The position numbers were made by a program, and so were the translations under genes. Of a stretch of 64,000 bases of DNA, positions 1-64,000 are shown piece by piece. Location: positions 864,001-928,000 of the forward strand of contig CAWEYG010000003.1 of assembly GCA_963813155.1 (NCBI GenBank), read 5' to 3'. The first letter of the stretch is position 1. Each line of letters opens with the position of its first letter. Origin of the DNA: an uncultured Acidobacteriota bacterium. GTDB taxonomy: Bacteria; Acidobacteriota; Thermoanaerobaculia; UBA5066; DATFVB01. The notes beneath the pieces were generated by a model. The model ran no database searches. It saw only the letters and a list, made by a program, of their open reading frames with translations, and had not been told where the DNA came from.

Positions 1-150
1 GCGGCTGTGTTCGCGGCGTGCGACGGTTATCGGTTCGCCCGGCGCGAAACCCGGCGGGAACAGGCGGCCGAATCGCTGGCGGCCGCGCGCCGCGCCGCGG
101 CCGGGATCCGCCGATCGACCGAGCCGCCCCCGCAGGAATTGTCCGCATGA
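1..150 (+). CDS. 3' end of a gene upstream of batA (partial, bat-operon accessory protein)
   Basis: Open frame 1 (AAVFAACDGYRFARRE...QELSA*) ends in a TGA that overlaps the batA ATG (ATGA at 147-150). Confidence 0.55.
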   Translation, partial: AAVFAACDGYRFARRETRREQAAESLAAARRAAAGIRRSTEPPPQELSA

Positions 151-1154
151 TCTCCTTTGCGCGGCCCTGGGCCTTCGCGATTCTCGTCGTCCCCGCCGCC
201 GCGGTCTGGTGGCGGCACTGGCGGCGGCGATCCGGCCTCGAAGTCCTCGAGGTGCCCGATCTTCCACGCGTGCGCCGCTCTCTCGCCGGCTTCCTGTGGC
301 CGGTTCCCTCCGTGCTCTCTTTTCTGGCCGTTGCCGCCGCGGCGGTCGCGCTCGCGGGGCCGCGCCGCTTCGAGCGTCGGCCGATCGATCCCGGCTGGGG
401 GGCGAACATCGCGATCGCGCTGGACGTCTCGGGCTCGATGTCCGCCGAGGACTTTCAGCCGCGAAACCGCCTCGAGGTCGCGCGTTCGGTCGTCGCCGAT
501 TTCATCCGCGGCCGAACGGCCGATTCGATCGCGCTTCTCGCGTTCGCGGGGGCGGCCCGGACGGTCTGCCCGTCGACGGACGACCGCGACACGCTGCTCG
601 CTCTCCTCGCGCAAACGGACGGTTCGAAGCTCCCGGACGGCACGGCGATCGGAAACGCGATCGCGACGGCCGTGTCGAGGCTCAAGGACCTCCCCGGCAA
701 GAGCAAGGTTCTCGTTCTCGTGACCGACGGAGGCAACAACTCGGGCCAGATCGATCCCGAGACCGCCGCCGGAATCGCGCGGGCCTACGGGATTCGCATC
801 CACACGATCGCCGTCGGGCGGGGCGGCCGCGTCCCCATCACGCTGACGATGCGCGACCCGCTCACGGGAAAGTCGGTGAAGCGGCGAATCGAGGCGGACG
901 TCGAGGTCGACGAGGAGCTCCTTCGGAAGATCTCCGCCGCGACGGGGGGAAGATCCTTCCGCGCAACCGACTCCGCGACACTCGCGTCGATCTTCCGGGA
1001 GATCGACGGCCTCGAGAAAACGCCCGTGCCGGCGAAATTCGAGATCGTCGCGCACGACCTGAGCGGCCTGCCCGCGAGAGCCGCGGGCGCGCTCCTGCTC
1101 GCGGCCCTGCTGCTGGCCGCAGGACCCCTCCGGGTCGAGACAGAGGCCGCGTGA
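147..1154 (+). CDS. batA: BatA-like VWA domain membrane protein
   Basis: N-terminal F..PW hydrophobic segment, MIDAS DVSGSM, DGTAIG and TDG motifs, C-terminal TM; ATG at 147 preferred over 18. Confidence 0.85.
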   Translation: MISFARPWAFAILVVPAAAVWWRHWRRRSGLEVLEVPDLPRVRRSLAGFLWPVPSVLSFLAVAAAAVALAGPRRFERRPIDPGWGANIAIALDVSGSMSAEDFQPRNRLEVARSVVADFIRGRTADSIALLAFAGAARTVCPSTDDRDTLLALLAQTDGSKLPDGTAIGNAIATAVSRLKDLPGKSKVLVLVTDGGNNSGQIDPETAAGIARAYGIRIHTIAVGRGGRVPITLTMRDPLTGKSVKRRIEADVEVDEELLRKISAATGGRSFRATDSATLASIFREIDGLEKTPVPAKFEIVAHDLSGLPARAAGALLLAALLLAAGPLRVETEAA

Positions 1155-1161
1155 GGCCCGC

Positions 1162-2106
1162 ATGAGGTGGGCCGAACCGGTCTGGCTCTGGGGCGTGCTC
1201 GGAGCCGCCGGCGTCGGAGTGCTGCTCCGCTCCGCGCAGCTTCGCGCGCTGCGGATGAGCCGGCGCATCGATCCGCGCTTCCGCGGCCGCGGGGCCTGGC
1301 GGGCCTGCGTGCTTCCGGCCGCGAGCCTCGCTCTCGTTTTCGCCGCGCTCGCCCGGCCGCAGTGGGGGTACCGGCGCGTCGCGTCGGCGACGGCGGAAAG
1401 CGATGCCGTGCTCGTCTTCGATACTTCCGGGTCGATGCTCACCCGTGACGTCGCGCCGGACCGGTTTTCGCGCGAAAAGCTCTTCGTCCGCGACCTCCTT
1501 CGCGACCTTCCCGACACGGTGCGCGTCGGCCTCGTCCGCGTCGAAGGGGAAGGTTCCGTCGTCTCCCCCCTCACGCTCGACCGCGATTCGCTGCGAAATT
1601 CGCTCGACGAGCTCGCTCCCCGCGGATCCGAGACCCCCGGCTCAGATCTCGGAAACGGCATCCGCAAGGCGACTGCTCTTCTTTCGGCGCGAGGGTCGCG
1701 CGCCCGCTCGATCGTTTTCCTCTCGGATGGAGAGGACCTCGACGACGGTCTCGATGCCGCGATTCGCGAGGCGCAGCGCCGGGGAATCGTCGTCGACACG
1801 GTCTGCTCCGGCACCCCCGGCGGGGGGCCCGTGCCCGCGCGGGGCGGAGGTTTTCTCTCGGAAGGAGGCGGCCCGGTCGTGTCGCACGCGCATCCGGAAA
1901 AGATGAGGGCGATCGCCGCGAGCTCGGGAGGCGCGTTCGTCACTCCCGACGACTCTCCGAAGATCTTCGCGGCGAAACTGCGAACCCCCGGACGCTCGGG
2001 GCGGGGATGGACGAACCGCGAGCCGGCGGAGCGCTCCCCGTGGGCGCTGGGTTTGGCGATCGTCGCGTGGGCGGCGTGCCAGCTGCCGGTCCGGGAGCGG
2101 TCGTGA
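1162..2106 (+). CDS. batB: BatB-like VWA domain protein
   Basis: ALARPQWG, DTSGSM, SDGED motifs; follows batA. Confidence 0.8.
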   Translation: MRWAEPVWLWGVLGAAGVGVLLRSAQLRALRMSRRIDPRFRGRGAWRACVLPAASLALVFAALARPQWGYRRVASATAESDAVLVFDTSGSMLTRDVAPDRFSREKLFVRDLLRDLPDTVRVGLVRVEGEGSVVSPLTLDRDSLRNSLDELAPRGSETPGSDLGNGIRKATALLSARGSRARSIVFLSDGEDLDDGLDAAIREAQRRGIVVDTVCSGTPGGGPVPARGGGFLSEGGGPVVSHAHPEKMRAIAASSGGAFVTPDDSPKIFAAKLRTPGRSGRGWTNREPAERSPWALGLAIVAWAACQLPVRERS

Positions 2107-2720
2107 AAAAGGCGGCCGCGGCGCTCCTCGCCCTCGGGTCGATCTTCTCTCCCGCTCGCCGGGCCGCGAAGAAAGGCGTGGAGGATTTCCGCGCGAAACG
2201 CGTCGCGGAGGCCCAACGCGATTTTCGCGAGGCGGAGAGGCGCGAGCCGAACGAGCCGGCCTGGAACTTCAATCTCGGCACCGCGAACGCGGCCGCCGGG
2301 GATCACGCAGCGGCTCGGGCGGAGCTCGCGAAGGCGGCGCAGTCGAGCGATCCGGCCGTCGCCGCCAGAGCCCTCTACCAGATCGGCACACTCGACCTGC
2401 AGGAGGGCAACTACCCGGACGCGGCCAACGAGCTCCGCCGGAGCCTCGAGATCGTCCCCGGCGACGCCGACGCGAAGCGAAATTTCGAGATCGCCGCTCG
2501 CAATCGCGACCAGAAACCTCCCCCGCCGCCGAAAGGAGGCGGGGGAGGCAAAGAACCGCCGAAGGGCGAGAAGAAACCCGAGCATCGCCCGGACGACTCC
2601 GACTTCCGCCGAAAGGCCGGCATGACGCGGGCGGAAGCCGAAGCGATGCTGCGGAGCCTCGAAAACGAACAGAAACAGAAGGAACGGGTCTCGGCCCGGG
2701 AAGAGGGAAAAGACTGGTGA
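2103..2720 (+). CDS. batC: BatC-like TPR protein
   Basis: TPR motifs (FNLGTA, YQIGT, DADAKRNFE), C-terminal KDW; GTG overlaps the batB stop. Confidence 0.75.
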   Translation: MKKAAAALLALGSIFSPARRAAKKGVEDFRAKRVAEAQRDFREAERREPNEPAWNFNLGTANAAAGDHAAARAELAKAAQSSDPAVAARALYQIGTLDLQEGNYPDAANELRRSLEIVPGDADAKRNFEIAARNRDQKPPPPPKGGGGGKEPPKGEKKPEHRPDDSDFRRKAGMTRAEAEAMLRSLENEQKQKERVSAREEGKDW

Positions 2721-4288
2721 GGTGGGCGCGGGTTTCGGTTCTTGTCGCCGCCCTTCTGTGCTCGCGCGGCTCGATCGCGGCCGAGACGCCCTCCCTCTCG
2801 GCACGGCTCGAGCCGGACCGCCTTGCGGCCGGGGAAATGACGACCCTTCAGATCACGATCTCCGGCTCCGTCCGGCTCAAGAGCGCCCCCGATCTCGCGC
2901 TCCAGAATTTCCAGCTCATTGCCGGACCTTCGATCGAGAACCGGTTCGAGTGGATCAACGGAAGGAGCTCGAACCAGACGATCCTGATCTACCGCCTGCG
3001 CGCGTTGAAGCCGGGGTCTGCATCGGTCGGCCCGGTTCGCGTTTCCGGCGCGGCCGGCGAGACCCTCGAGGCGCCGCAGGCGACGGCTACCGTCGAGAAG
3101 CCCGGCGAACCGGCGGCCGAGGCGCGCCCCGGGCCGGTCTCCTCCGACCCCGCTCTCGTCGCGCGCCTCGATCCTTCCCGGCCGTACGCCGGGCAGCAGG
3201 CCGTCTGGACGCTTTATCTCGTCACGCGGGGCCGGGCCACGCAGGGAGAGATCAAGTCCCTTCCCGACTTCAAGGGATTCTGGGCGGAGGATCTCGACCG
3301 GGACCCGAATGTCATGCCCCAGGTCTGGAACATCGCGGGCGTGAGCTGGCACGCGTATCCGATGATCCGCAAGGCCCTCTTCGCGAACCGGCCGGGCGCG
3401 ATTTCCATCGGCGCCGCCCGCGCGCTGATCGCGGTCCGTTCCGATTTCTTCGATCTGTTCGGCGATTCGCCGTTTTCGGAATCCCGGCCGGTCGAGAAGG
3501 AAGCGGCGCCGGTCGCGACGGCCTTCCGTCCGCTGCCCGAGAGCGGCGATCGCCTGCCGGTCGGAAGCTTCACCCTGAAGAGCTCGTTGGACCGGAGGGA
3601 TGTCGCGCCGGGAGGATCCTTTTCCGTGACCGCCTCGCTGTCAGGCGACGGGCGCCTGGCGGACGTGGCGGCGCCCGGCCTCTCGATCGCGGGCGCGAAG
3701 ATCTCCGAACCGGAGTCGCGGCTCTCCATTCGCAGGAGCTCGCAGCGGCTGTCGTCGACGCGAAGCTGGCAGTGGGTCGTCACGCCGGAGAAACCGGGCA
3801 TCCTGACCGTGCCGGCCTTTCGAATCTCGACCTTCAACCCCGTCACGGGAAGCGTGGCGGAGGTCGCTTCCCCGTCGATGGACGTTCGCGCCGCCGGACC
3901 GCTCGCGCCCGAGACGCCCGCCGCTCCGATCCTCCCTTCGCCGCCCGCCCACAGCGCGTTTCCGGCGCCCGCCGTCCTCGTCCCGGGTCTCGCGGCCGCC
4001 GCCCTGCTGCTCGTCGCGGCGGGTTATCGGCTCGGCCGGGCGCGAAATTCCGGCCCCGGACCGGAACGGCCGGAGGGGACTCCGGAGGAGAGAATCGCGT
4101 CGCTGCTCGCGGCCCTCGCGGCGAAGGCGAGCCGGCGGGGGGGAACGGCCCCGGGCGAAATCGCGCGCCTGCGCGACGAGCTCGCGCGGATCGCCTACTC
4201 GCCGCAGCTGTCCTCGCGGGAGGAAGCTCTCGAGGAACTCGAGACGGAGACTCTCCAGCTGGCAAGACGCTGGAAGGTCCGAATATAG
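2717..4288 (+). CDS. batD: BatD family protein
   Basis: Signal peptide, beta-rich repeats (ING..S, YAGQQ, VGSFTL), C-terminal TM; operon position. Confidence 0.8.
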   Translation: MRWARVSVLVAALLCSRGSIAAETPSLSARLEPDRLAAGEMTTLQITISGSVRLKSAPDLALQNFQLIAGPSIENRFEWINGRSSNQTILIYRLRALKPGSASVGPVRVSGAAGETLEAPQATATVEKPGEPAAEARPGPVSSDPALVARLDPSRPYAGQQAVWTLYLVTRGRATQGEIKSLPDFKGFWAEDLDRDPNVMPQVWNIAGVSWHAYPMIRKALFANRPGAISIGAARALIAVRSDFFDLFGDSPFSESRPVEKEAAPVATAFRPLPESGDRLPVGSFTLKSSLDRRDVAPGGSFSVTASLSGDGRLADVAAPGLSIAGAKISEPESRLSIRRSSQRLSSTRSWQWVVTPEKPGILTVPAFRISTFNPVTGSVAEVASPSMDVRAAGPLAPETPAAPILPSPPAHSAFPAPAVLVPGLAAAALLLVAAGYRLGRARNSGPGPERPEGTPEERIASLLAALAAKASRRGGTAPGEIARLRDELARIAYSPQLSSREEALEELETETLQLARRWKVRI

Positions 4289-6901: not shown

Positions 6902-7516
6902 GTGCTCGCATCCGCCTCGCCGCGCCGGGCGGAGATCCTTTCTTCGCTCGGAATCGCGTTTCGTGTCCTCGTGTCCCGACGCAGCGAAACCCTTCGCCGG
7001 GGCGAGGACGCTCCGTCGGCCGTCCGACGCCTCGCGCGGGAGAAAGGACAGCAGGTGTTCGCGAACGCGGGCGGGCGCGCCGTCCTCGCCGCCGACACGC
7101 TCGTCTACCGCGGCACGAACATCTTCGGGAAGCCGGCCGGCCGCGCGAGAGCGGCCGCCATGCTCGAAGAGCTCTCGGGGAAGACCCACTACGTCGCGAC
7201 CGGCGTCTGCCTCATCACCCCCGACCGGCTCATGGAACGCACGGCCGTTTCCCAGGTCCGCTTCGCCCCGCTGTCGCCGGCCGAAATCGCCTGGTACGTC
7301 TCGACCGAGGAGCCGCTCGACAAGGCCGGAGGGTACGCGGTCCAGGGCCTCGGCGCGAGGTTCATCCAGGAGATCCGGGGCTCCTACAGCAACGTCGTCG
7401 GCCTTCCGGCCCGCGAGGTCTACGAGATGCTTCTCGAAGCGGGACTCGGGCCGCTCGCGATGCCGGCGCGTCTCCCCGACCCCGCGCCGAAGGGCGCGCG
7501 CCGGCCGAAGCGGTGA
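6902..7516 (+). CDS. maf: Maf family nucleoside triphosphate pyrophosphatase
   Basis: LASASPRR, ADT, GKP, DKAGGY, NVVGLP motifs. Confidence 0.9.
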   Translation: MLASASPRRAEILSSLGIAFRVLVSRRSETLRRGEDAPSAVRRLAREKGQQVFANAGGRAVLAADTLVYRGTNIFGKPAGRARAAAMLEELSGKTHYVATGVCLITPDRLMERTAVSQVRFAPLSPAEIAWYVSTEEPLDKAGGYAVQGLGARFIQEIRGSYSNVVGLPAREVYEMLLEAGLGPLAMPARLPDPAPKGARRPKR

Positions 7517-8019
7517 TTCCGATCGTCTTCGCCCCGACGATCTCCGCGGCAAAGCGGGCCGGGCGCGGCCGGAGAGAATTTCTCCCCGCCTCGCCGAAGA
7601 GCGACGGCGCGCTCGACCGGGCCCTCTCGGAAGGCCTGCCCGTTCGGTTCTGCGCCCCGAAGTCGGCTTCGAAATTCTGGAAGCTCGTCCGCCGACGCTA
7701 CCGGCTTCCCGCGCCCCCGCCGGTCCTGCGGGATGCCATCGGCGGCATCGCCCGCCACAGCGCCGCGGACGGAACGTCCCGGAATCTGCCCGGCAGGCCG
7801 CCCGGCGGTCGGTTGCAGGCTCTCTGGATCGAGGGGTCGCTCTCCGATTCCCGGGCGCGGGCGCTGCTTCGGGAGACGGGCGAGATCCGGCTCTGGGTGA
7901 TCGAAGACTTTCGCCAATTGCGCGTTTCCGACGCTCTCCTTTCCCGGGCGGAGCGAGCCGGAATCCGCATCGCCGCGATCCGACCGCTTCGCGCTTCGGT
8001 GTTAAGATTCCGGGCATGA
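7513..8019 (+). CDS. hypothetical protein
   Basis: 168-aa ORF with 4-nt overlaps to maf and to the next gene; no recognisable motif. Confidence 0.5.
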   Translation: MIPIVFAPTISAAKRAGRGRREFLPASPKSDGALDRALSEGLPVRFCAPKSASKFWKLVRRRYRLPAPPPVLRDAIGGIARHSAADGTSRNLPGRPPGGRLQALWIEGSLSDSRARALLRETGEIRLWVIEDFRQLRVSDALLSRAERAGIRIAAIRPLRASVLRFRA

Positions 8020-9353
8020 AACGCATTCTTTCCGCGGTCGTCCTCGCCGCTTGCTCGGTTTCCTCGCTCCGAGCGGCCGCGCCGAAGACGGAACCGCTCC
8101 CCTTCCTCCAGGACGACTACCCGCAGGCGCTGTCCCGCGCGCGGGCCAAGAAGCTTCCGATCTTCGCGGAGGCCTGGGCCCCCTGGTGACACACCTGCCG
8201 CTCGATGAGGGCTTTCGTCTTCACCGATGAATCCCTCTCGAAGCGCGCCGGACAGTTCGTCTGGCTTTCGGTCAACACGGAGCTCGCGAAAAACACCGGG
8301 TTCCTCAAGAAGTACACGGTTCAGGCCTACCCTTCCTTTTTCGTGATCAGCCCGGAGACGGAGACGGTCGCGTATCGCTGGATGGGCGGAGCGACCGTCG
8401 CGCAGCTGCAGAAAATCCTCGACGACGGCCGGCGGGCGGTTCGTCCCGGCCGCGGGGATTTCGAGACGGCGCTCGCCCGCGCGGACCGGCTCTACGGCGC
8501 CGGGAAGAACGCCGAGGCCGCGGACTCGTACCGCCGCGCTCTCTCGCTCGCCCCGAAGGGGTGGGATCGCTACGGGCGGACCGTGGAATCGCTTTTGTTC
8601 GCGCTGGACAGCACGCACGACGCCGAGGGGTGCGCTCGCGCCGCGTTCGAGGCCTATCCGAAACTCTCCCGCTCGGCGTCGCTCGCGAACGTCGCGGCCG
8701 CGGGGCTCGGATGCGCTCTCGAGCTCCCGGCCGAAAAGCCCGGGCGCGCGCAGCTCGTGGCCTCGCTCGAGAAGGCGACGCTCGAGTCGATGGCGAACCC
8801 GCGTCTCGTCATGTCCGCCGACGACCGGTCGAGCCTCTACCAGGTCCTCATCGACGCCCGCGAAGACGCGAAAGACGAGGCCGGCCAGCGCAAGACGACG
8901 GAAGAGTGGTCCGCGTTCCTCGACGCCGAGGCGGCTCGCGCGAAGACCGTGGAGCAGAGATCCTCGCTCGATCCCCACCGGCTCCTCGCCTATCTCGCGC
9001 TGAAGACTCCGGAGAAGGCCGTGCCGATGCTCGAAGCGTCGGAGCGCGACCTGCCCCAGGACTACAACCCGCCGGCCCGGCTCGCGCTCGCATACAAGAA
9101 CATGGGGAAATTCGACGATGCGCTCGCCGCCTCCGACCGGGCGTTGTCGAAGGCCTACGGGCCCCGAAAGGTCGGCATCCTGAGGACCCGCGCGGACATT
9201 TACCAGGCCATGGGCAAGCCCGAGATGGCGGCATCGACCCTCGAAGACGCGATCGGATACTCGGAAAAGCTGCCGGACGAGCAGAAGTCCGACGCGCAGA
9301 TCGCGTCCCTCCGAAAAAAGCTCGCCGAAGTGCGCAACCCGGCCAAACCGTGA
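8016..9353 (+). CDS. Exported thioredoxin-fold/TPR protein, predicted selenoprotein (in-frame TGA 8187-8189, WAPW-U-HTC)
   Basis: Signal peptide MKRILSAVVLAAC..., then ARAKKLPIFAEAWAPW-TGA-HTCRSM continues in frame into ORF 8205-9353 (Trx-like YPSFFVI plus TPR helices). Confidence 0.85.
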
Positions 9354-9368: not shown

Positions 9369-10175
9369 ATGTACAACGACTACTACGGGTTCCGCGAATC
9401 TCCGTTTAACATCACTCCCGACCCCCGCTTCCTCTTCTTCAGCGAACAGCACCGGGAAGCTTTCAACCACATCCTCTTCGGCATTCGCGAGAGGAAGGGG
9501 TTCATCCAGATCACGGGCGAGGTCGGAGCCGGGAAGACGACCGTGTGCCGCTCGATCCTGGAGCAGCTCGGAGAGAACTACAAGACCGCGTTGATCCTGA
9601 ATCCGCGGCTGACGAGCGCCCAGCTGCTTCGCGGAATCCTGGCCGAGCTCGGGCTGCCGCCGCGCCGCGCCGACCGCGCCGCCGGGCTCGAGGCGCTCAA
9701 CCGGTTTCTCCTGGAACAGGCCGAGGCCGGCCGCGACGTGGTCCTCATCATCGACGAGGCGCAGGACCTCGGAGACGACCTGCTCGAAGACGTGCGGCTC
9801 CTGTCCAATCTCGAAACCGACCGGCGAAAGCTTCTCCAGATCGTCCTGATCGGCCAGCCGGAGCTCCGAGAGAAGCTGAACGCCCAGGAGCTTCGCCAGC
9901 TCCGCCAGCGGATCACCGTCCGCTACCACCTCGACCCGCTGTCGCGCGCGGACACGGAGCGCTACATCCAGCACCGCCTTCAGATCGCGGGCGGCAACGG
10001 ACGGCCCGACTTCAGCGGCTGGGCGATTCGAAGCATTCACCGTTATTCGAAGGGCGTGCCCCGCCTCATCAACGCCGTCTGCGACAAGACGCTGCTCTGC
10101 GGGTTCGTCACGGGCGACGACCATCTGACATCGAGCCACGTTCGCCGGGCCGTGCGGGAACTGGAAGGAAGATGA
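9369..10175 (+). CDS. ExeA/GspA-like AAA ATPase
   Basis: PFNITPDPRF, Walker A GEVGAGKT, IIDEAQ, LIGQPEL, GVPRLIN. Confidence 0.88.
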   Translation: MYNDYYGFRESPFNITPDPRFLFFSEQHREAFNHILFGIRERKGFIQITGEVGAGKTTVCRSILEQLGENYKTALILNPRLTSAQLLRGILAELGLPPRRADRAAGLEALNRFLLEQAEAGRDVVLIIDEAQDLGDDLLEDVRLLSNLETDRRKLLQIVLIGQPELREKLNAQELRQLRQRITVRYHLDPLSRADTERYIQHRLQIAGGNGRPDFSGWAIRSIHRYSKGVPRLINAVCDKTLLCGFVTGDDHLTSSHVRRAVRELEGR

Positions 10176-24701: not shown

Positions 24702-25712
24702 TCATCCCCGCGAACGCGGGGAGGTGGATTCACATTTGAAGTGCAACAGATGAGAGAAGACCTCGGCCGGGGTTTGGAAGTCAAGGCATTTCCTAGGTGT
24801 GTGATTGTAGAGTTGGGCAAGGCGGAGGATTTGGCTCGTGGGAAGGACTGCCAGGTCGGTTTTTCGGGGGAGGAAGCGACGAAGCCGGCCGATGGCATTT
24901 TCGACTCCGCCCTTCTGCCAAGGAGACCGTGGATCGCAAAAGAATGTTTCGACTCCGAGGGTTTTCCCCAGGCGGTGATGGAAAGCGAACTCGGTTCCGT
25001 TGTCGAAGGTCACGGTGCGGCGCAGGGACGGGGGAAGAGGTCGCAGAAGATTTTCGATGGTAGAGACAAGAGGTGCGGCGGCCTTGCTTTGTTGACGCAG
25101 GATAACCGTCAGTCGAGAAGTACGTTCGTGAAGGGCCAAGACGGCCTGCCCATAGGTGGCAAAGAGCATGAGATCGGCCTCCCAATGGCCAGGGTTGGTT
25201 CGGTCACTGGCTTCTGGGGGTCGCAGAGCAATGGGGACACGGTCTTGGATGTGCACGGTCGAGTTGCCGTGTTTTGGGGAGCGTCGGCCGCGCTTGCTCT
25301 TGCCGCGGGGGAGGTAGAGCCGCCAGGAGTAATCCTTGGTGCGAGCGATCTGAGCGGCGATGAAGCGATAAATGGTTTCATGACTGACAACCGGCCGGCC
25401 TTCTTCGCGCGCGAGCCTGCCGGCGACCTCCTGCGGCGACCATCCCTGACTGAGGCGGTCCAAGACCAGAGCCTGGAGGTCGGGCCGACGCAACAGTTTG
25501 CTGCCGGTCCAGCGCCGTGCCTTGGCCTGTTGACCGGCGTAAACGGGCTGATACCCGCCCGACGTCGTGCAGTTGCGCTTCAGCTCCCGAGCAACGCTCG
25601 ATGGCGCGCGATCCAGACCTGCCGCGATTTGCCGGATCGATTGCCCGGCGCAGCGACGCCGGGCAATCTCACACCGTTCCTGGATCCCAAGCTGCCCGTA
25701 TTGGCGCCCCAT
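24702..25712 (-). CDS. IS30 family transposase
   Basis: HTH SIRQIA...RELKRN, WSP, ETIY, GHWEADL, TFDNGTEF, PWQKGGVEN, PRKCL. Confidence 0.95.
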   Translation of the reverse strand: MGRQYGQLGIQERCEIARRRCAGQSIRQIAAGLDRAPSSVARELKRNCTTSGGYQPVYAGQQAKARRWTGSKLLRRPDLQALVLDRLSQGWSPQEVAGRLAREEGRPVVSHETIYRFIAAQIARTKDYSWRLYLPRGKSKRGRRSPKHGNSTVHIQDRVPIALRPPEASDRTNPGHWEADLMLFATYGQAVLALHERTSRLTVILRQQSKAAAPLVSTIENLLRPLPPSLRRTVTFDNGTEFAFHHRLGKTLGVETFFCDPRSPWQKGGVENAIGRLRRFLPRKTDLAVLPTSQILRLAQLYNHTPRKCLDFQTPAEVFSHLLHFKCESTSPRSRG

Positions 25713-27795: not shown

Positions 27796-28380
27796 TCAGG
27801 CGCCCGTCAGGTCCTTGAGAAGCTCCGACACGGTTTCGGGAGACAACTCCGCCTCCCCGCGATTTTCGCCGTGGGAAAGCACGAGCCGGGCCCGGCCGGC
27901 GCCGGCGAGCGCCGAAGAGCCTTCGGGTCCCAGCGGAAAGCGGATGTAATGCACAGCCGAGATCTTATCTTCCCGCCCGTGACCTTCCTCGAAATTCGCG
28001 AAATACCTGCGGCCGCCGATCTCCATCCAGAGGCTCCTGCCTTCGTCCAGCCCGATGAACGAGTCGAGAATCGGCTTCACCCGGGCTTCCTCGGTCACCT
28101 CGACGAACAGCGTCGCGGCGACCTCGCCCGGTTCCGGCAGGAGCGAATTGTAGACGTCGATCTCCTCCTGAATCTTCGCGGGCTCGACGATCCGCTCGGC
28201 CCGAAGCATCTCCTGGATCTGGAAGAGGACCGTGTCGCGGTTCTCGAAAACGAGCGTCACGAGCGGGCCCACCGAAACCCGGCGGAGAGCCTTCTTCTCG
28301 ATCACCCGGCGGCGAAACTCGGGCCGGGCGAGCTCGTATTCGTGGAGATTTTGCAACGACGTGATCGAGATCTTCTGCAT
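27796..28380 (-). CDS. DUF3501 family protein
   Basis: FENRDTVLFQIQEMLRAE, YN.LLP, SAVHY; sits in the rubrerythrin cluster. Confidence 0.82.
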   Translation of the reverse strand: MQKISITSLQNLHEYELARPEFRRRVIEKKALRRVSVGPLVTLVFENRDTVLFQIQEMLRAERIVEPAKIQEEIDVYNSLLPEPGEVAATLFVEVTEEARVKPILDSFIGLDEGRSLWMEIGGRRYFANFEEGHGREDKISAVHYIRFPLGPEGSSALAGAGRARLVLSHGENRGEAELSPETVSELLKDLTGA

Positions 28381-28381
28381 C

Positions 28382-29659
28382 TCAGACTTCCAGGCCGTAA
28401 CAGTCGGCGAGGATCTGAATCGGATGCCGGGGAGACACGCCCGCGCCCTGCGAGATCTGGAGCCCCGCCAGAGGACAATCCGTCGCGACGGCGTCGGCAG
28501 AAGTCTCCCGGAGTTTTTCGAAAAGCGGCTTGCCGATTTCCATGGACATCGGAAAGTACTCCGTTTTCATCGACCACGTGCCGTCGTGTCCCGAGCATTT
28601 CTCGATCGTTTCGACGTGGTTGCCCGGAACGAGTGCCAGGAGATCGCGCGACTTGAACCCGATGTCCTGCACCTTCAAGTGGCATGCCACGTGGTACGCG
28701 ATGCGGCCCGCCGCCTTCGGGAAGTCGGTCTCGAGCTTGCCCGCCGCGTGCCGTTTCATCAGATACTCGCTGAGATCGAGCGTCGCCCGGGAGAGGGCGT
28801 CCGCATCCGCGTCCTTTCCGAGAAGCGGATATTCCTTCTTGAGAGTGAGCGAGCAGGTCGGGCCGGTCGTGACGACCGGAATCCCCCGGCGGACGAAGGG
28901 CATCAGCGAATTCAGGTTCTCGCGGCGGTTCCCGCGAGCGGAGTCGAGATCGCCGGAATCGAGAAACGGCATTCCGCAGCATTTCTGAAACGGGACGATC
29001 ACTTCGACTCCGTTTTTTTCGAGGACTGCGACGGCGGCCTTGCCGATGTCGGGATTGTTGAAATTCACCGAGCACGTCGTGAACAGGACGACGGCGTCGT
29101 CGGTTTGCAGGTCCGAAAGCGACATCTTGCCGCCCCGGCCCGCCCACCATTTCTCGAAGGTCTCGCCGTGAAAGACAGGAAGAAGCCGGTCCCGATGCAC
29201 GCCGAGCGTCTTTTCCATGGCCCAGCGCAGCGGGGCGGTCCGATTCGCGAAATTGACGACCGGAGCGGCGAGGGATGCGAGCGAGCCCAGCGCGTCCGCG
29301 GAACCGAGCACCCGGTCGCGAACGGGAGGCCTGCCCTCGTTTCGAACCCGGGCGGCGCGATCCCGCAGGACGAGCCGCGGAATATCCACGTCCCACCGGT
29401 GGGGCGGATAGTACGGGCAGTGGGGAATGCAAAGCTTGCACTCGAAGCAGAGGTCCGTGAAGGCGTTCAGGTCCGCCTTCGGAACACGATCGATCTCGCC
29501 GTCGACTTCCGGCCGGTCGAGCGCGCGAAAGATCGTGTCGAACGAAGGGCAGAGGTTGTAGCACCGCCGGCACGTGTGGCAGATGTCCATGATCCGCCGG
29601 TACTCCTTCTCGAGCGCGGGAGGATCGGCGAAATCGCGGGCGGAAGGGTCGAACGTCAT
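28382..29659 (-). CDS. Rubrerythrin-associated Fe-S oxidoreductase (4Fe-4S + CCG domains)
   Basis: CHTCRRCYNLC, CFECKLCIPHC, CCGMP, CSGHDG, DCP. Confidence 0.88.
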   Translation of the reverse strand: MTFDPSARDFADPPALEKEYRRIMDICHTCRRCYNLCPSFDTIFRALDRPEVDGEIDRVPKADLNAFTDLCFECKLCIPHCPYYPPHRWDVDIPRLVLRDRAARVRNEGRPPVRDRVLGSADALGSLASLAAPVVNFANRTAPLRWAMEKTLGVHRDRLLPVFHGETFEKWWAGRGGKMSLSDLQTDDAVVLFTTCSVNFNNPDIGKAAVAVLEKNGVEVIVPFQKCCGMPFLDSGDLDSARGNRRENLNSLMPFVRRGIPVVTTGPTCSLTLKKEYPLLGKDADADALSRATLDLSEYLMKRHAAGKLETDFPKAAGRIAYHVACHLKVQDIGFKSRDLLALVPGNHVETIEKCSGHDGTWSMKTEYFPMSMEIGKPLFEKLRETSADAVATDCPLAGLQISQGAGVSPRHPIQILADCYGLEV

Positions 29660-30336
29660 GGGTGATTCCTCGCCTCGCGAGGGCGGCTGTCGCGAGCGAG
29701 CGGTCCACTCGGAAGGGGCGCGGAATCGCCGGCTGCGGGCGGCAACTGCTCGCAACGAGGGAATCGGCCCTTGTCTGGCTCGCTGTTCTCCGACTCGAAA
29801 CGAGGTTCCAGGAGCTCCGGGAACGCGGCCGAGCGGGAGCACAGCGATGCCGCGAGTTGCGATTCCCGAGCTGAGCGACTAGCCGCACGACGCGCCGCCG
29901 GTTCACCGAGTTCACGATTCCCGAGCGTGTCGAGCCCCTTCTGGAATCGTCCCGCGTGGGATTTTTCGGCTCGCGCGAGCGTCTCGAACCACTCGGCGAC
30001 CTCGGTGAACCCCTCTTCGCGGGCGGTCTTCGCGAAGCCCGGGTACATCTGCGTGTACTCGTACGTCTCCCCTTCGACGGCCGATTTCAGGTTCAATTTC
30101 GTGTCCCCGATCGGAAAATTCGTCGCCGGGTCTCCGACCTCCTTCAGGAAGTCAAGATGGCCGAACGCGTGGCCGGTTTCCGCCTCCGACGTGTCGCGAA
30201 AGAGCCCTCCGACGTCGGGGAATCCTTCGATGTCCGCTCGCCGCGCGAAGTACAGATAGCGGCGGTTCGCCTGCGACTCTCCGGCAAAGGCGTGCTTCAG
30301 GTTTTCGTGGGTCTTGGTGTTGACGAGTTTCGGCAT
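29656..30336 (-). CDS. rbr: Rubrerythrin (erythrin type, no rubredoxin domain) with an ~87-aa atypical C-terminal extension
   Basis: [25 protein letters not shown]...MYPGF, AEKSH; SD AGAAGGAG. Confidence 0.88.
29677..29890. other. Long structured element, copy B (related to 20910-21119)
   Basis: Pairings 29683-29693/29875-29886, 29722-29729/29859-29866, 29780-29791/29835-29847; motifs shared with copy A. Confidence 0.6.
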
Positions 30337-30361
30337 TTTTCTTCTCCTTCTCGAAAAGCGG

Positions 30362-30775
30362 TCAGGCTTTTCGTTTGTTTCCGCATTTCGGACAGTATCC
30401 CCGGAATTCCAGCGTGTGTCCCGTGACGACGTAACCCCGCGACTCCACGAGCGGAGCGACCCTCGAATCGCCCCCTTCCGGCTTCGGGAGATCGGAGATG
30501 GAGCCGCATCCGAGACAGACGAAGTGGTAATGCTCCGATAAGTCCGCGTCGTAGCGCGTGGGCTTTCCCCAGGAATCGATCGCCCGAACTCGCCCCTCGC
30601 GTTCCAGCACCTGGAGGTTCCGGTAGACCGTCCCGAGGGAGACGTTCGAAAGCTGCTTCCTCGCTTCCGCGTAGATCCAGTCCGCCGTCGGGTGACGGCT
30701 CGTCGAAGCGACGATGCGAAAGACGATTTCGCGCTGCCGCGTTCGCCTCGTCGGTGCCGGGCCGGAATGTATCAT
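30362..30775 (-). CDS. perR: Fur/PerR family transcriptional regulator
   Basis: TRQR, HPTAD, SLGTVYRNL, HYHFVCLGC, CPKC; upstream of rubrerythrin. Confidence 0.8.
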   Translation of the reverse strand: MIHSGPAPTRRTRQREIVFRIVASTSRHPTADWIYAEARKQLSNVSLGTVYRNLQVLEREGRVRAIDSWGKPTRYDADLSEHYHFVCLGCGSISDLPKPEGGDSRVAPLVESRGYVVTGHTLEFRGYCPKCGNKRKA

Positions 30776-30815
30776 ATCAGTAACTATTACTATTAATAAT
30801 CCACCCGATTGTCAA
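30776..30815 (-). promoter_or_regulatory. sigma70 promoter overlapped by a Fur/Per-box-like AT-rich inverted repeat
   Basis: TTGACA (30810-30815), 17 nt, TAGTAA; imperfect 7-1-7 repeat TAGTAAT-A-GTTACTG; conspicuously AT-rich. Confidence 0.6.
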
Positions 30816-31240
30816 GCGATTTCTTCCGGGCCGTTTGAGCCCGGAATCCGAACGTCGACCCAGACTTCGCGCGAGCGGGGACCGTCGAGCTCGAGAAGGA
30901 AGACTCCCTGCCATCGTCCGAAACGCGGCCGTCCTTCCTCCACGACGAGGATGCGCGAGGTCCCGATCACTTCCGAGAGGAAGTGGGCCGCCGAGTTTCC
31001 CTCCGAATGGCGGAACGGCACGTCGGGAACCCAATTCGCGAGCGCGCGTTCGAGGTCGCCCCCGACGTCCGGGTCCCAGTTCTCGCCCACGGTCACCGCC
31101 GCGGTCGTGTGGGGAACCGAGACCAGCACCCAGCCGGAACGGACTCCGAGCGACGCGATCGCGTTCGACACCTCTTTCGTGACGTCGATCCGGTGGATCT
31201 TCCGATCGCTTCGAATCGAGAACGTTCGACGCATCTCCAC
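30812..31240 (-). CDS. yjbQ: YjbQ/UPF0047 family protein
   Basis: PHTTAA...EN.DPDV, H.EGNSAAH, GRWQG...ELDGPR. Confidence 0.88.
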   Translation of the reverse strand: MEMRRTFSIRSDRKIHRIDVTKEVSNAIASLGVRSGWVLVSVPHTTAAVTVGENWDPDVGGDLERALANWVPDVPFRHSEGNSAAHFLSEVIGTSRILVVEEGRPRFGRWQGVFLLELDGPRSREVWVDVRIPGSNGPEEIA

Positions 31241-47312: not shown

Positions 47313-48766
47313 TCAGGGACCGGGCTTCCACCGAAGGATCGGGTTCTTCGCCGCGCGGACTTCGTCGACCCGGCGAACCGGAGTCGTGTACGGCGCGTCG
47401 GCGAACATCTCGGGCTTCTCCTCCGCTTCCTTCGCGATCGCGCGCATCGCGTCCACGAACGCGTCGAGCTCGGGCTTGCCTTCGGTTTCCGTCGGCTCGA
47501 TCATGAGCGCTCCCGCGACGATCAGCGGAAAGGACACCGTCGGAGGCGGAAACCCGTAGTCCATCAGCCGCTTCGCGATGTCGCCGTTGTGCACTCCGTG
47601 CTCGGCCTGTCGCTTGTCGGAGAAGACGACCTCGTGCATCGTCGGAGCGTCGTATTTCAGGTGGTAGAGGTCCGCCAGGCGCGCGCGGATGTAGTTCGCG
47701 TTGAGAACGGCGTCCCTCGCGACCTCGCCGATCTCCCGCCCGTACGTCAGGATGTACGAGACCGCGCGCACGAGGACGCCGAACTGCGACGAAAACGACC
47801 TCAGGCGGCCGACCGATTCCGGACGGTCCGCGTCGAGCCGGAACGTGCCGTCCGGGTTGCGCTCGACCGTCGGGACCGGAAGGTGCGGGACGAGCGCTTC
47901 GCAGACCGCGACCGGGCCGGCGCCGGGGCCGCCCCCGCCGTGGGGGGTCGAAAACGTCTTGTGCAGGTTCATGTGCATCACGTCGATCCCCATCGCGCCG
48001 GGATTGGCGAGACCGACGAACGCGTTGAAATTCGCGCCGTCGCCGTACAGGAATCCGCCCTTTCCGTGGACGATCTCCGCGATCTCGGTGATCCGGCGCT
48101 CGAAGATGCCCGAGAGTGTTCGGGACGGTCATCATCAGGGCCGCGACCTCGCCGGTCATCGCCTCTTCGAGAACGTGGAGGTCGAGGCGGCCGTTCGCGT
48201 TGGACTTCAGCTCCTTCACCTCGTAGCCGGCGAAGCTCGCCGTGGCCGGATTCGTTCCGTGCGCGGAGTCGGGAATGAGCACGTACTTGCGCGGGTCTCC
48301 GCGTTTTTCGAGGGCCTTGCGCACCATCAGAATGCCGGCGAGCTCTCCCTGGGCTCCGGCGCACGGCGTGAGCGTCACGCGCGGCAGGCCCGTCAGTTCC
48401 GACAGGAAACGCTCGAGCATCCACATCAATTCGAGGTTCCCCTGGGCGAGCGCTTCCGGCGCGCAGGGATGCGTCGCCGCGAAGCCCGGGAGCCGCGCCA
48501 TCTCCTCGTTGATCCTCGGGTTGTGCTTCATCGTGCACGAACCGAGCGGATACAGGCCGTCCTCGATTCCGAGGTTCAGGCGCGAGAGCCGGGTGAAATG
48601 CCGCGCGACGTCGACCTCCGAGACCTCCGTTTCCCCTTCGATCTCGCCTCGGAGCAGCTCCGGAAGGAATCGCGAGCTTCTCTTCGACGTCCAGCGGCGG
48701 AAGGGAATAACCCCTCTTTCCCGGCCGGGACCGCTCGAAAATCAGGGGCTCTTCGCGAATTTTCAT
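47313..48766 (-). CDS. gcvPB: Glycine dehydrogenase subunit 2, two frameshifts (~48664, ~48110)
   Basis: LIFERS, YPLGSCTMKHNP, AGAQGE, PDSAHGTNPA, NLHKTFSTPHGGGGPG, IEPTETE across three frames. Confidence 0.9.
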
Positions 48767-50089
48767 GAGATCTTCGCGAGCTCCGCGGCGTAGAGATCCA
48801 TTTCTTCTTTCGTGTTCATTTCCGTCACGGCGACGAGCATTTCGCGGGTCCCGGCCCGGGAACCAGCGCGTCAGCGGGACCCCGGCGAGGATTCCGCGCG
48901 CGCCGAGAAGCGCGACGACTTCTTCCGCGGGCCGCGGGCAGCGCACGCAGAACTCGTTGAACACGGGCCCGCGGGTCTCGATCGAGAATCCGCGCGTCGC
49001 CGCGATCCGGGTCTTCAGGTAGTCGGCCTTCGAGGCGCACTGAACCGCCGTCTCCCGCAGCCCGGCCTTTCCGAGAAGGGAGAGGTACACGTTGGAGCAG
49101 AGCGCCATGAGGCCCTGGTTCGTGCAGATGTTCGACGTCGCCTTCTCGCGGCGGATGTGCTGCTCTCGGGTGGAAAGGGTGAGGCAGAACGCGCGTTTGC
49201 CTTCGGAATCGACCGATTGGCCGGCGAGCCGGCCGGGCATCTGGCGCTTGTGCGCGTCGCGGCAGGCGAGAAAACCGAGCGCGGGAGCGCCGAACGACAT
49301 CGGAACGCCGAGGGAACGCGCTTCCCCGCACGCGATGTCGAGACCGCATTCTCCCGGCGACTTCAGCAGCGCCAGGGAAGCCGCCTCGGCGACGACCGCG
49401 ACGGCGGCCGCGCCGCTCGATTGCGCCGCCGTTCGCGCGAGCTCCCAGCTCCGGACGGCGCCGAAGAAGTCCGGCGACTGCATGGCGACGGCGAAGGTCT
49501 GCGAATCGACGGCCGCGCCGAAGTCTTCGTCCTCGACTTCGACGAGGTCGAGCGACAGGTTGTGAAAATACGTCTTCGCCGTGTCGAGATAGTCCGGATG
49601 GATGTTCTTCGACACGACGGCGCGCCGCCGGCCCTTGACGAGGCGGCTCGCCATCAGCAGGGCTTCGACGAGCGCGGTCGCGCCCTCGTAAAGGGAGGCG
49701 TTCGCCACTTCCATCCCCGTCAGCAGGGCGAGGTGGGTCTGCCATTCGAAGATCGACTGGAGCGTGCCCTGCGAAATCTCGGGCTGGTAGGGGGTATAGG
49801 ACGAGAGCCATTCCTCGCGGTACAGCGTCTGGTCCGCGATCGCGGGCACGTAGTGGTGGTAACAGCCGGCTCCGAGAAAATGCGCATGGCTCTTCGCGTC
49901 GGCGTTTCGCGCGGCGAGCCGGCCGAGCTCGCGGCGGATTTCGATCTCGGACCTGGGAGCCGGCAGATCGGGCTTTCCTCGCAATCGGACCGCGGAAGGC
50001 ACGTCGCGAAACAGATCTTCGACGGAGTCGACACCGATCGCGGCGAGCATGTCGCGGCGCTCGTCGTCCGAAGAGGGGAGAAATTTCAT
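48763..50089 (-). CDS. gcvPA: Glycine dehydrogenase subunit 1, one frameshift near the 3' end (~48848)
   Basis: FLGAG.Y.H, YTPYQPEISQG, TREQHIRREKATSNICTNQ; shifted tail MLVAVTEMNTKEE ends in an ATGA overlap. Confidence 0.9.
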
Positions 50090-50090
50090 C

Positions 50091-50483
50091 TCAGTGTTCT
50101 TGCGATTCTTCCTTGACGAAAGCTTCGTATCCCTTCGCGTCCATCAAGTCGGTCACGTCGTCGGTCGAGAGCTTGAGTTTGATGAGCCACCCGTCTCCGT
50201 AAGAGTCCTCGTTCAGGGCGGCCGGATCTTCCACCGCCTGCTTGTTGATTTCGGTCACCTCGCCGGCAACGGGGGAAAAGAGCTCCGAGACCGCCTTGAC
50301 GGACTCGACCGTGCCGAATTCCTGCCCCGAATCGAAGACGTGCCCGACTTCGGGCAGTTCGACGTACACGATCTCGCCGAGCTCTTTCTGGGCGTACTCG
50401 GTGATGCCGACCGTCGCCGTGTCGCCGTCGACCCGAACCCACTCGTGGCTTCGCGAATAATGCAGATCGTCGGGAAATTTCAT
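50091..50483 (-). CDS. gcvH: Glycine cleavage system H protein
   Basis: HEWV, GITEYAQ, VESVKA lipoyl-Lys motif, YGDGW. Confidence 0.95.
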   Translation of the reverse strand: MKFPDDLHYSRSHEWVRVDGDTATVGITEYAQKELGEIVYVELPEVGHVFDSGQEFGTVESVKAVSELFSPVAGEVTEINKQAVEDPAALNEDSYGDGWLIKLKLSTDDVTDLMDAKGYEAFVKEESQEH

Positions 50484-50503
50484 TTCTCTCTTCCTCTCGC
50501 CCG

Positions 50504-61731: not shown

Positions 61732-64000
<2,269 letters not shown>

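Follow-up and report, generated by a model that had tools for sequence, protein, structure and literature searches.

In a window of 64,000 nucleotides of DNA from an uncultured Acidobacteriota bacterium, probably a member of Thermoanaerobaculia, we found that positions 8016–9353 of the plus strand very probably form a selenoprotein gene. The sequence supports one gene for a protein with a thioredoxin fold and tetratricopeptide-like repeats (TPR), having selenocysteine (Sec) at the first position of its CxxC motif. With good, slightly lower confidence, we read the product as an exported Sec-containing Thioredoxin_7–TPR thiol-disulfide oxidoreductase, where the UGA would be recoded via a distal hairpin at 8248–8264.

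The frame starting from the ATG at 8016–8018 meets an in-frame TGA at 8187–8189 and stays open up to the stop TGA at 9351–9353, which gives 445 codons and a stop. The gene start overlaps the stop codon of an upstream 168-aa ORF (ATGA at 8016–8019). As claimed in the original prediction, the read-through translation is a single protein of 445 residues (...IFAEAWAPW-U-HTCRSMRAFVF...), in which U is residue 58 and the first position of U-H-T-C (8187–8198). It had also been claimed that gene callers split this gene, and this was confirmed: the ORF taken under translation table 11 spans 8205–9353 (382 aa), and the protein collection lists this same 382-aa form (P0002; 100% identity, 86% query coverage). 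A related locus, L001, was aligned over query residues 1–445. The frame check and the alignments show an intact, conserved gene.

The family comprised 584 genomic relatives, and 497 representatives at an E-value of 1e-30 or lower. For 80 of these 584 relatives, all from other species in a one-genome-per-species collection, we inspected the codon aligned to the TGA. It was TGA in 75 loci and TGC in five, and the peptide was conserved on both sides; immediately upstream of this column, the loci showed synonymous differences. In the protein databases the family was present as full-length Cys forms, carrying WAPWCHTC with Cys at the residue 58 column, and as truncated forms that start at the Met following the motif. 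Among the 120 relatives listed, 62 begin at this Met and 56 are full-length with W..WCxxC, while among 150 representatives at 50% identity, 84 have W..WCxxC and 45 start only at query residue 64. Homologues with either Cys or a conserved TGA at this column, which the original prediction had proposed to look for, were therefore both found. No codons other than those for Cys replace the UGA at this column, and the state changed between Sec and Cys at least 14 times on a tree of 113 rows.

Together, the TGA and TGC loci and the Cys and truncated database forms mark this as a real Sec/Cys family rather than an error or a pseudogene, and selenium would be inserted at residue 58. Public annotation takes the 382-aa ORF as the gene, under source names that include 'tetratricopeptide repeat protein', as would be expected if the TGA reflected a sequencing error or the lesion of a pseudogene, or genuinely ended a 57-aa peptide gene ahead of a 382-aa TPR gene. 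We consider this extremely improbable, since the same TGA in 75/80 species-level genomes refutes it as far as sequence can, neither half alone can form a thioredoxin fold, and the structured RNA downstream (see below) is specific to the TGA forms.

The thioredoxin-fold domain, of the Thioredoxin_7 type, covers residues 31–141 (8106–8438, plus strand), as judged from Pfam and from the beta-alpha pattern of an AF2 model with pLDDT above 90 in this region (overall pLDDT 92.5, pTM 0.87). Pfam Thioredoxin_7 (PF13899) matched residues 32–113 with 33.7 bits (cut-off 27, C standing in for U) and Thioredoxin (PF00085) matched residues 45–135 with 28.5 bits (cut-off 23.5); PF13098, at 25.2 bits, was below its 27-bit cut-off. 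As both matches span residue 58, the TGA cuts one domain in two. In the model, U58-H-T-C61 immediately precedes the helix 59–68, and the cis-Pro P106, invariant in a 24-sequence alignment, precedes the strand 107–112. The nearest solved sequences to this domain were 2kuc and DsbD C-terminal domains. The NCBIfam selenoprotein models all scored far below their cut-offs (TsoB NF045694, 24 against 805 bits; Trx7/PDZ NF041199, 12 against 300; WAxxUGC NF041054, 14.1 against 300).

Residues 148–440 (8457–9335, plus strand) were matched by several TPR models and form an all-alpha TPR-like superhelix of 17 helices, with pLDDT mostly above 90. Foldseek matched the model to TPR superhelices, ranking YbbN/CnoX 3qdn first and 3qou 14th. 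The Pfam matches across the TGA and the AF2 model bear out the original description of a thioredoxin–TPR protein, and this fold is confidently predicted. From the position of the motif, we infer that the protein acts as a thiol-disulfide oxidoreductase whose nucleophilic first residue is Sec; by analogy, the ~300-residue superhelix is presumed to bind substrates or partners and most likely holds a protein substrate. The N-terminus, about residues 1–22 (8016–8081, plus strand), resembles a signal peptide: MKR is followed by a hydrophobic run (mean KD hydropathy 2.76 over the 10 residues after K/R) and small residues, and residues 1–23 are disordered in the AF2 model with pLDDT below 50. By a crude hydropathy test, 110 of 141 full-length family members likewise have K/R and then a hydrophobic 10-residue window before the thioredoxin domain. 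To this extent the earlier description of the protein as exported stood, and export is suggested by these features.

The gap to the next gene (ATG at 9369) is indeed 15 nt, and this neighbour codes for an ExeA-like AAA ATPase; the model it comes nearest to is that of the PEP-CTERM ATPase, TIGR03015 (317 bits, cut-off 324.5). The gene after it, which had been called gspB, encodes a 784-aa membrane protein having weak PMT_2 and LIC_10190 matches only and no GspB match. The ExeA-like gene was adjacent in 3/80 loci, the closest three, so the proposed hint of an exeA-gspB pair at secretion or envelope folding fails. When neighbours were clustered over the 80 loci, none accompanied the gene consistently; an amidohydrolase formed the largest true cluster, with 18 loci.

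The Sec-type selD reported for the same window was confirmed. This selenophosphate synthetase gene occupies 57506–58591 on the minus strand, with its start probably at GTG 58591; it matched TIGR00476 with 337.9 bits (cut-off 125) and contains an in-frame UGA at 58534–58532 within the motif ...SAGUACKLG.... Its canonical SECIS core (58505–58521, minus strand; −6.3 kcal/mol) has a 6-bp stem, an AGUUC loop and a UGA-to-loop distance of 16 nt, and is the in-genome reference for what SelB probably recognises. An organism carrying a Sec-containing SelD must decode UGA as Sec. In the 64-kb window, which is part of a contig of at least 1 Mb, ARAGORN found no tRNA, tRNA-Sec included, none of the 49 ORFs scanned by Pfam contained SelA or SelB domains, and Rfam gave no match at gathering thresholds. 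That neither selA, selB nor selC was seen in the window would be compatible with the UGA being read through as an amino acid other than Sec, either as Cys by a tRNA-Cys(UCA) via SelB or as a near-cognate Trp. This is very unlikely in our view, because the UGA and canonical SECIS of selD, at its catalytic Sec/Cys position, argue for a working Sec system that uses selenophosphate, and because the recoded column here is the nucleophilic position and alternates only with Cys, which is the classic Sec/Cys pattern.

Taking the gene as a selenoprotein gene, we considered two locations for its SECIS element. We hold it an even call that a distal minihelix, H3, at 8248–8264 of the plus strand acts as the SECIS through loop-out. 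Less probable, though possible, is a SECIS at canonical spacing within a long coding-region hairpin that precedes H3, either a hairpin at 8206–8223 or the apical part with its loop at about 8220–8225; H3 would then be conserved because of protein constraint, mRNA stability or a role as an accessory enhancer.

H3 (CCGGAC-AGUUC-GUCUGG) has a 6-bp stem and a loop at 8254–8258, a free energy of −7.2 kcal/mol, and lies 64 nt after the UGA; we regard it as the candidate core for SelB binding. It shares its loop and its stem length with the canonical selD SECIS, a likeness within one genome that speaks against a SECIS at canonical spacing. H3 was present in 75/75 Sec forms and in 1/5 Cys forms (L027). 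Its loss from the other four Cys forms, among which L035 kept the H3 peptide and changed the codons, also argues against that alternative; only five Cys-form DNA sequences served as controls. Perfect 6-bp hairpins with an RGUUY loop occurred four times on both strands of the 64-kb window, and two of the four follow the two in-frame UGAs. On both strands of 1.25 Mb of loci there were 96 such hairpins: 75 belonging to the Sec forms, one to a Cys form and 20 of background. In each of the 75 Sec forms the distance from the T of the TGA to the hairpin is exactly 67 nt.

Structure and codon tests were performed on an aligned set of 71 Sec forms, in which the H3 stem was 100% paired. Given the protein, the probability that synonymous recoding keeps all six pairs is 0.156, and they were kept in 71/71. 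The Gly codon of H3 was GGA in 61 sequences, GGG in 10 and GGC in none, GGC being 46.5% of the Gly codons in the genes of the window. The H3-encoded peptide, [AT]G[QR]F[VA]W, was found in 104/108 truncated (presumed Sec) forms versus 23/128 Cys forms, and the Q/R-F encoded by the loop is also common among Cys forms. With control for phylogeny, the association of Sec state and H3 peptide was not significant (median p 0.125) in an under-powered comparison of only six independent Sec/Cys pairs, where the H3 motif changed the same way in 3.8 and the opposite way in 0.1, with no change in 2.2. The stem never varied on both sides and compensatory changes numbered zero, which leaves conservation and codon choice, and not covariation, as the support for H3. 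This lack of compensatory changes favours the idea that H3 is conserved for another reason.

We also scanned the Sec forms for consensus hairpins, counting gapless stems only, at limits of −3 and −5 kcal/mol; a limit of −7.5 kcal/mol on gapless stems was unsuitable as it rejects even the SECIS of selD itself. With −5 kcal/mol as the limit, column 68 had a G-loop hairpin in 70/71 Sec forms. At the canonical 16–37 nt, such hairpins were found in 7/71, at no common position and with at most four at any one, which weakens the case for a SECIS at canonical spacing. No conserved G-loop hairpin had the 16–37 nt spacing of the bSECIS consensus. The original prediction had asked for a check of the first 60 nt after the UGA; the sole G-loop hairpin conserved in all Sec forms, 8248–8264, is outside that stretch.

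A scan of the window and the loci for in-frame TGAs with coding signal on both sides returned 47 candidates, 34 of them the thioredoxin–TPR gene; its filter missed selD, and hence the list is not exhaustive. The other 13 included a PrdB/GrdB-like selenoprotein gene in L056 having a 5-bp hairpin with the loop GGUCG at 17 nt after its UGA, so canonical SECIS elements in this clade look like H3.

The stretch between the UGA and H3 is itself structured. A long coding-region hairpin at 8194–8247 of the plus strand (columns 8–61) is proposed as a spacer; the own minimum-energy fold of the sequence in the window spans columns 11–62 (8197–8248), and its segment folded with an MFE of −32.1 kcal/mol (z −3.36). 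An initial model of this hairpin (15–19/50–54, 23–33/40–49) was dropped because per-sequence folds gave a lower stem of 8–14/55–61. RNAalifold on the 71 Sec forms had given H3 alone, with no notable covariation term, and the long hairpin was tested as a named structure. It was in the minimum-energy fold of 71/71 Sec forms, with the outer pair 8–61 in 48, and its cells were 86.8% paired versus at most 49.5% when slid. Its synonymous-recoding z averaged −2.60 in the Sec forms versus −0.92 to +1.91 in the five Cys forms. The column pair 24–48 covaries at synonymous sites (GC 40, CG 13, GU 6, AU 3), and AGG is used as the Arg codon in 42/71 Sec forms, compared to 5.7% of the Arg codons across the window.

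Two shorter hairpins had originally been proposed as SECIS elements. Both exist; neither is the best candidate, and in neither loop is a G conserved at position 1 or 2. The one at 8197–8212 was 86.9% paired across the 71 Sec forms and showed no covariation. The one at 8206–8223 (columns 20–37) was 92.4% paired, versus at most 63.6% when slid, and showed some covariation (pair 24–33: GC 52, CG 5, GU 2). Its 23 nt spacing fits the 16–37 nt rule as given in the main text of PMC13188914, where some bSECIS elements are described as off consensus, so that a functional loop might do without the conserved G. However, column 24 follows column 48 (CG 13) better than column 33 (CG 5), and the minimum-energy fold takes the long hairpin in every Sec form, which goes against 8206–8223 as the SECIS.

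If H3 is the SECIS, SelB would bind the minihelix at 8248–8264, 64 nt from the UGA instead of 16–37 nt. The intervening ~54 nt would fold into the conserved hairpin and loop out the sequence between the UGA and H3, presumably bringing the SECIS close to the UGA. H3 may thereby sit beside the mRNA entrance of the ribosome when the UGA occupies the A site.

The family occurs widely across Thermoanaerobaculia and further Acidobacteriota, and the truncated 'TPR proteins' under which its Sec forms are stored lack the catalytic half. For this gene, predicted functions and counts of selenoproteins are consequently wrong in Acidobacteria of soils and sediments. With at least 14 Sec/Cys changes, the family is well suited for studying the gain and loss of Sec in parallel with those of the RNA signal. 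Were H3 the SECIS, its spacing would be roughly twice the accepted maximum; the spacing rule would not be absolute, and searches at 16–37 nt would systematically miss such genes. A natural split SECIS would mean that Sec recoding in bacteria tolerates structured insertions between the codon and the signal.

We compared the protein with the bacterial thioredoxin-fold UxxC selenoproteins (PF00085, the 'thiol:disulfide interchange protein' PF13098 and other thioredoxin-like families; Table 1 of PMC13188914). It shares with them Sec at the first CxxC position, at the start of helix 1; they likewise have abundant Cys homologues and Sec forms truncated by gene callers. It differs in combining a signal-peptide-like N-terminus, Thioredoxin_7 and a roughly 300-aa TPR-like superhelix. 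The terms TPR, tetratricopeptide and Acidobacteri do not occur in the review text of PMC13188914, to which this comparison was confined. No description of the family was found in the open literature searched, PMC13188914 and PMC12013277 included.

The CnoX/YbbN chaperedoxins (3qou, 3qdn) have the same order of an N-terminal thioredoxin fold and then a C-terminal TPR domain, and for Caulobacter CnoX the text of PMC6282202 describes reductase as well as holdase activity. We use CnoX as a working analogy, in which a redox domain would act on clients held by the TPR arm. CnoX is cytoplasmic, whereas the protein here has a signal-peptide-like N-terminus; its TPR arm is about twice as long as that of CnoX, its thioredoxin domain is of the Thioredoxin_7/DsbD-gamma type, and its active site has Sec. 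The superposition on CnoX/YbbN is poor (query-normalised TM-score 0.21, rmsd 21 Å), and PF14561 (TPR_20, the YbbN-type C-terminal domain) has no match in the protein. An exported Sec-thioredoxin with a TPR arm of this size would give the periplasm an equivalent of the cytoplasmic chaperedoxins, and poses the question of which partner reduces or oxidises a selenenylsulfide in the envelope.

The bSECISearch consensus, as stated in the text of PMC13188914, comprises a loop of 3–9 nt, an upper stem of 4–16 bp, a G in the first two loop positions and a distance of 16–37 nt from the UGA; according to the same text, some of the known selenoprotein genes do not fit this model either. H3 resembles a canonical SECIS in its 6-bp stem and its loop of 5 nt, where position 2 is invariably G and U comes next, and differs in its 64 nt spacing and in having the gap filled by the conserved ~54-nt hairpin. 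No natural long-distance bacterial SECIS was found in the open literature searched. Su, Li and Gladyshev (NAR 2005) reportedly engineered displaced SECIS elements in E. coli. The idea common to those constructs and to H3 is that a SECIS works if held near the mRNA entrance, not only when contiguous with the UGA. The text of PMC10945757 places the SECIS ~11 Å from helix h16 of 16S rRNA and describes SECIS-rRNA fusions, with the SECIS grafted onto h16, as functional. The engineered displaced elements are laboratory constructs, whereas H3, if it is the SECIS, would be a natural case, and the loop-out arrangement made by engineering in E. coli may already exist in nature.

The frame of the Trx-TPR gene opens at ATG 8016 on the forward strand, meets an in-frame TGA at 8187-8189 (residue 58) and remains open to the stop TGA at 9351-9353. 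Reading the first TGA as U gives 445 residues, ...IFAEAWAPW-U-HTCRSMRAFVF..., as claimed in the original prediction, and the gene is indeed split by gene callers: the table 11 ORF list contained only the 382-aa piece, 8205-9353, which is also the form stored in the public protein collection (P0002). Residue 58 is spanned by Pfam Thioredoxin_7 (residues 32-113, 33.7 bits, cut-off 27) and also by Pfam Thioredoxin (residues 45-135, 28.5 bits); neither half of the split Trx region is a domain alone. In NCBIfam no model, those for Trx-like selenoproteins included, matched the 445-aa protein at its cut-off. The start ATG overlaps the stop TGA of an upstream 168-aa ORF (7513-8019; overlap 8016-8019), which suggests translational coupling; this ORF has no Pfam or NCBIfam match and is conserved in three related loci, L001-L003, only.

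We searched 5.8 billion proteins, scored 8000 candidates and obtained 3074 matches, 120 of which were listed. The listed relatives fell into two length classes: in 62 the sequence begins with the Met immediately following the CxxC motif (MRAF...), and 56 are full-length with W..WCxxC, the remaining 2 having other forms (protein alignment A1). An exhaustive search of 50%-identity representatives gave 497 proteins at E <= 1e-30; 45 of the 150 that were listed start at query residue 64, and 84 have the Cys motif. A few family members (e.g. P0166 and P0252 in the family-wide set P0122-P0271) have lost both active-site cysteines.

As the original prediction had proposed, the column was then inspected for Cys or a conserved TGA in related genomes. 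The collection held one genome per species, and the best 80 of 584 relatives were kept, a selection that favours close relatives of the query. In these 80 loci, the codon aligned with residue 58 was TGA in 75 and TGC in five (L027, L032, L035, L071 and L072). The peptide was conserved on both sides of this column, with synonymous differences in the codons just before the TGA; therefore a sequencing error, a pseudogene and two separate genes were all excluded. Record names of the loci were those of Thermoanaerobaculia and Acidobacteriota MAGs, plus two 'Eisenbacteria'. The pattern of the aligned codons is the usual hallmark of a Sec/Cys family. We consider it very probable that the gene encodes a selenoprotein, and the protein belongs to the known kind of Trx-fold UxxC selenoproteins.

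The Sec-type selD predicted in the same window was borne out (57506-58591, minus strand). As called, ORF 57506-58486 (-) is AIR-synthase-like, table 11 seeing only the 326-aa piece after the UGA; read upstream through TGA 58534-58532, it gives ...SAGUACKLG... and matches TIGR00476 with 337.9 bits (cut-off 125). Its SECIS (58505-58521) is textbook-short, with a 6-bp stem and loop AGUUC 16 nt after the UGA (UGA, 10 nt, then UGGGUC-AGUUC-GACCUA). Since SelD itself needs Sec, this gene sequence would imply a working Sec system in the organism. No tRNA and no SelA or SelB domain was found in the 64-kb window.

Next, we aligned the 78 nt from TGA onward of 71 distinct Sec-form sequences (columns are counted from T of TGA). 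RNAalifold returned a single helix, columns 62-67 with 73-78 around loop 68-72, 100% paired and without a compensatory change in the 71 sequences. In the window this minihelix, H3, is CCGGAC-AGUUC-GUCUGG (8248-8264, plus strand), with a stem as long as that of the selD SECIS and the identical loop. A search for RGUUY loops closed by a perfect 6-bp stem found four such hairpins over both strands of the window, two of which follow the two in-frame UGAs. In 1.25 Mb of the loci there were 96: in 75/75 Sec forms one is placed exactly 67 nt downstream of the T of TGA, another falls in the Cys form L027, and the other 20 are at unrelated places. Synonymous recoding (preserving the protein and the codon usage of the window) keeps all six H3 pairs with a probability of 0.156, against 71/71 observed. 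The Gly codon within H3 was GGA in 61 sequences, GGG in 10 and GGC in none, GGC being 46.5% of the Gly codons in the window's genes; in the Cys form L035 the peptide AGRFVW is kept with codons unable to pair. This codon choice points to selection on the RNA. The peptide [AT]G[QR]F[VA]W was present in 104/108 truncated forms versus 23/128 Cys forms. As a phylogenetic control, we used a quick 113-row tree (excluding fragments, rows <300 residues and the first 40 alignment columns), on which the Sec/Cys state changed no fewer than 14 times, with only six independent pairs on supported branches. The H3 motif changed in the same direction as the Sec/Cys state in 3.8 of these pairs, in the opposite direction in 0.1 and not at all in 2.2; the trend was in the right direction but not significant (median p 0.125).

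According to the available text of PMC13188914, the canonical ALTERNATIVES consensus has a loop of 3-9 nt with G in its first two positions, an upper stem of 4-16 bp and a UGA-to-loop spacing of 16-37 nt. We scanned the Sec forms with this consensus (gapless stems, <= -5 kcal/mol). A hairpin at 16-37 nt was present in only 7/71 Sec forms, at most four at any one position, and a consensus-type hairpin at column 68, the H3 loop, in 70/71; selD's own SECIS passes at column 20. Two hairpins closer to the UGA had been proposed as SECIS candidates, and both are largely paired, with a loop G conserved in neither. The first (8197-8212, columns 11-26) is 86.9% paired without covariation, and its loop G, at a synonymous position, varies among the sequences. 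The second (8206-8223, columns 20-37) is a real rival to H3, being 92.4% paired with GC in 52 and CG in five sequences at pair 24-33; however, a conserved G is absent from its loop, and a longer hairpin described below competes with it. By chance, the flank of a related locus contained a PrdB/GrdB-like selenoprotein gene (L056:6018-6794, minus strand; ...VPVUPMCHQ... with in-frame TGA; PF07355 36.9 bits, cut-off 22; TIGR04483 136.7 bits, below the cut-off of 300). Its hairpin CAGAC-GGUCG-GUCUG, 17 nt after the UGA, provides a second canonical case of an H3-type hairpin in this clade. In the literature searched, we found no natural bacterial SECIS beyond 37 nt; some bSECIS elements are stated not to fit the model in the available text of PMC13188914.

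The stretch between the UGA and H3 is itself predicted to fold. The window's own 78 nt fold at -32.1 kcal/mol (z -3.36 versus dinucleotide shuffles) into a long hairpin (columns 11-62) followed by H3, and the minimum-energy fold comprised both elements in 71/71 Sec forms, the outermost pair of the long hairpin being 8-61 in 48, 10-59 in 15, 11-62 in four and others in four. The named structure was 86.8% paired, versus at most 49.5% with its 3' partners slid. Against synonymous recodings, columns 4-61 gave a mean z of -2.60 (92% of sequences below -1.64; the window's own -2.28); the five Cys forms gave -0.91, +1.91, +0.02, -0.92 and -0.62. Pair 24-48, joining two synonymous third positions, covaries (GC 40, CG 13, GU 6, AU 3, other 9), and the rare Arg codon AGG (5.7% of the window's Arg codons) occupies columns 22-24 in 42/71 Sec forms.

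Thus, in all Sec forms a conserved minihelix with a selD-like G loop lies 64 nt downstream of the UGA, abutted upstream by a conserved, thermodynamically favoured hairpin. When the UGA occupies the A site, the long hairpin would have its first few pairs inside the mRNA channel and its remainder at the mRNA entrance, tethering H3 a few nucleotides from the entrance, about where the selD SECIS would be (10-nt spacer plus 6-nt stem strand). For most relatives, the corresponding route would comprise 4 unpaired nt, the helix junction and a stem strand of 6 nt. Support for the idea that position near the entrance matters comes from a study of 2005 in E. coli, in which a 3'-UTR SECIS was reportedly brought close by base pairing. 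Functional SECIS-16S rRNA (h16) fusions, described in the available text of PMC10945757, support it too. We give such a looped-out SECIS an even chance.

The gene had also been placed 15 nt upstream of exeA-gspB. The gap was confirmed, and the 'exeA' neighbour is an AAA_22 ATPase (9369-10175, plus strand) closest to the XrtA/PEP-CTERM ATPase model TIGR03015 (317.2 bits, cut-off 324.5). The identity of the following 784-aa ORF as GspB was rejected, as this membrane protein instead matches PMT_2 and LIC_10190 weakly. Seven window neighbours tested were all limited to the closest relatives (six in L001-L003, the 784-aa ORF in L001 and L002 only), and clustering of neighbours over 80 loci gave no conserved partner gene, the largest real cluster being an amidohydrolase in 18/80; hence the suggested role in folding of secretion or envelope proteins is unsupported.

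Elsewhere in the window, another thioredoxin-like gene (DUF255/Thioredox_DsbH type, 256 bits; about 61800-64000, plus strand) runs off the end and contains a perfect GGUUC-loop hairpin (62578-62594) with no in-frame TGA ahead of it. ORF 24702-25712 (-) is probably the transposase of an IS element, as it has HTH_38 and weakly matches an integrase core (rve); it sits in a stretch unflagged as typical coding by the GC3 filter. Also present are a BatA-BatD-like operon (18-4288, plus strand; two VWA proteins, a TPR protein and a BatD-domain protein), an oxidative-stress/iron cluster (27796-31240, minus strand; DUF3501, CCG-domain Fe-S protein, rubrerythrin, Fur-family regulator and UPF0047) and glycine-cleavage genes (47313-51524, minus strand; P-protein pieces and an H-protein domain), whose called ORFs look overlong or split.

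No description of this protein family or architecture was found in the literature searched, and NCBIfam release 20 has no model for it. The terms TPR, tetratricopeptide and Acidobacteri are absent from the available text of a 2026 catalogue of 119 families (PMC13188914). The family could be subsumed in generic 'Trx' or 'thiol:disulfide interchange protein' entries, or in the catalogue supplements; source names of Sec forms read 'tetratricopeptide repeat protein'.

Finally, we modelled the protein with AF2 and alignment A1 (mean pLDDT 92.5, pTM 0.87). The model has a disordered N-terminus (residues 1-23), a thioredoxin fold (residues 31-141) with U58 directly before helix 59-68, and a TPR-like superhelix of 17 helices (residues 148-440); the cis-proline position P106 is invariant in A1. 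The predicted Trx and TPR-like parts are thus both modelled, and predicted export was addressed by a crude hydropathy test: K/R followed by a strongly hydrophobic 10-residue window precedes the Trx domain in 110/141 full-length members. In most of the 12 listed exceptions the hydrophobic run is there but the K/R is missing, which may reflect start codons annotated too far downstream. The solved chains closest in sequence are 2kuc (putative disulphide isomerase, E 2e-15) and C-terminal domains of DsbD. Fold comparison ranked TPR superhelices highest, together with the Trx-TPR proteins 3qdn and 3qou (YbbN/CnoX), although the overall superposition on the latter is poor (query-normalised TM-score 0.21). 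Our best reading is an exported oxidoreductase whose Sec would attack client disulfides or oxidised cysteines while the TPR arm holds the client, by analogy with the cytoplasmic chaperedoxin CnoX as described in the available text of PMC6282202.
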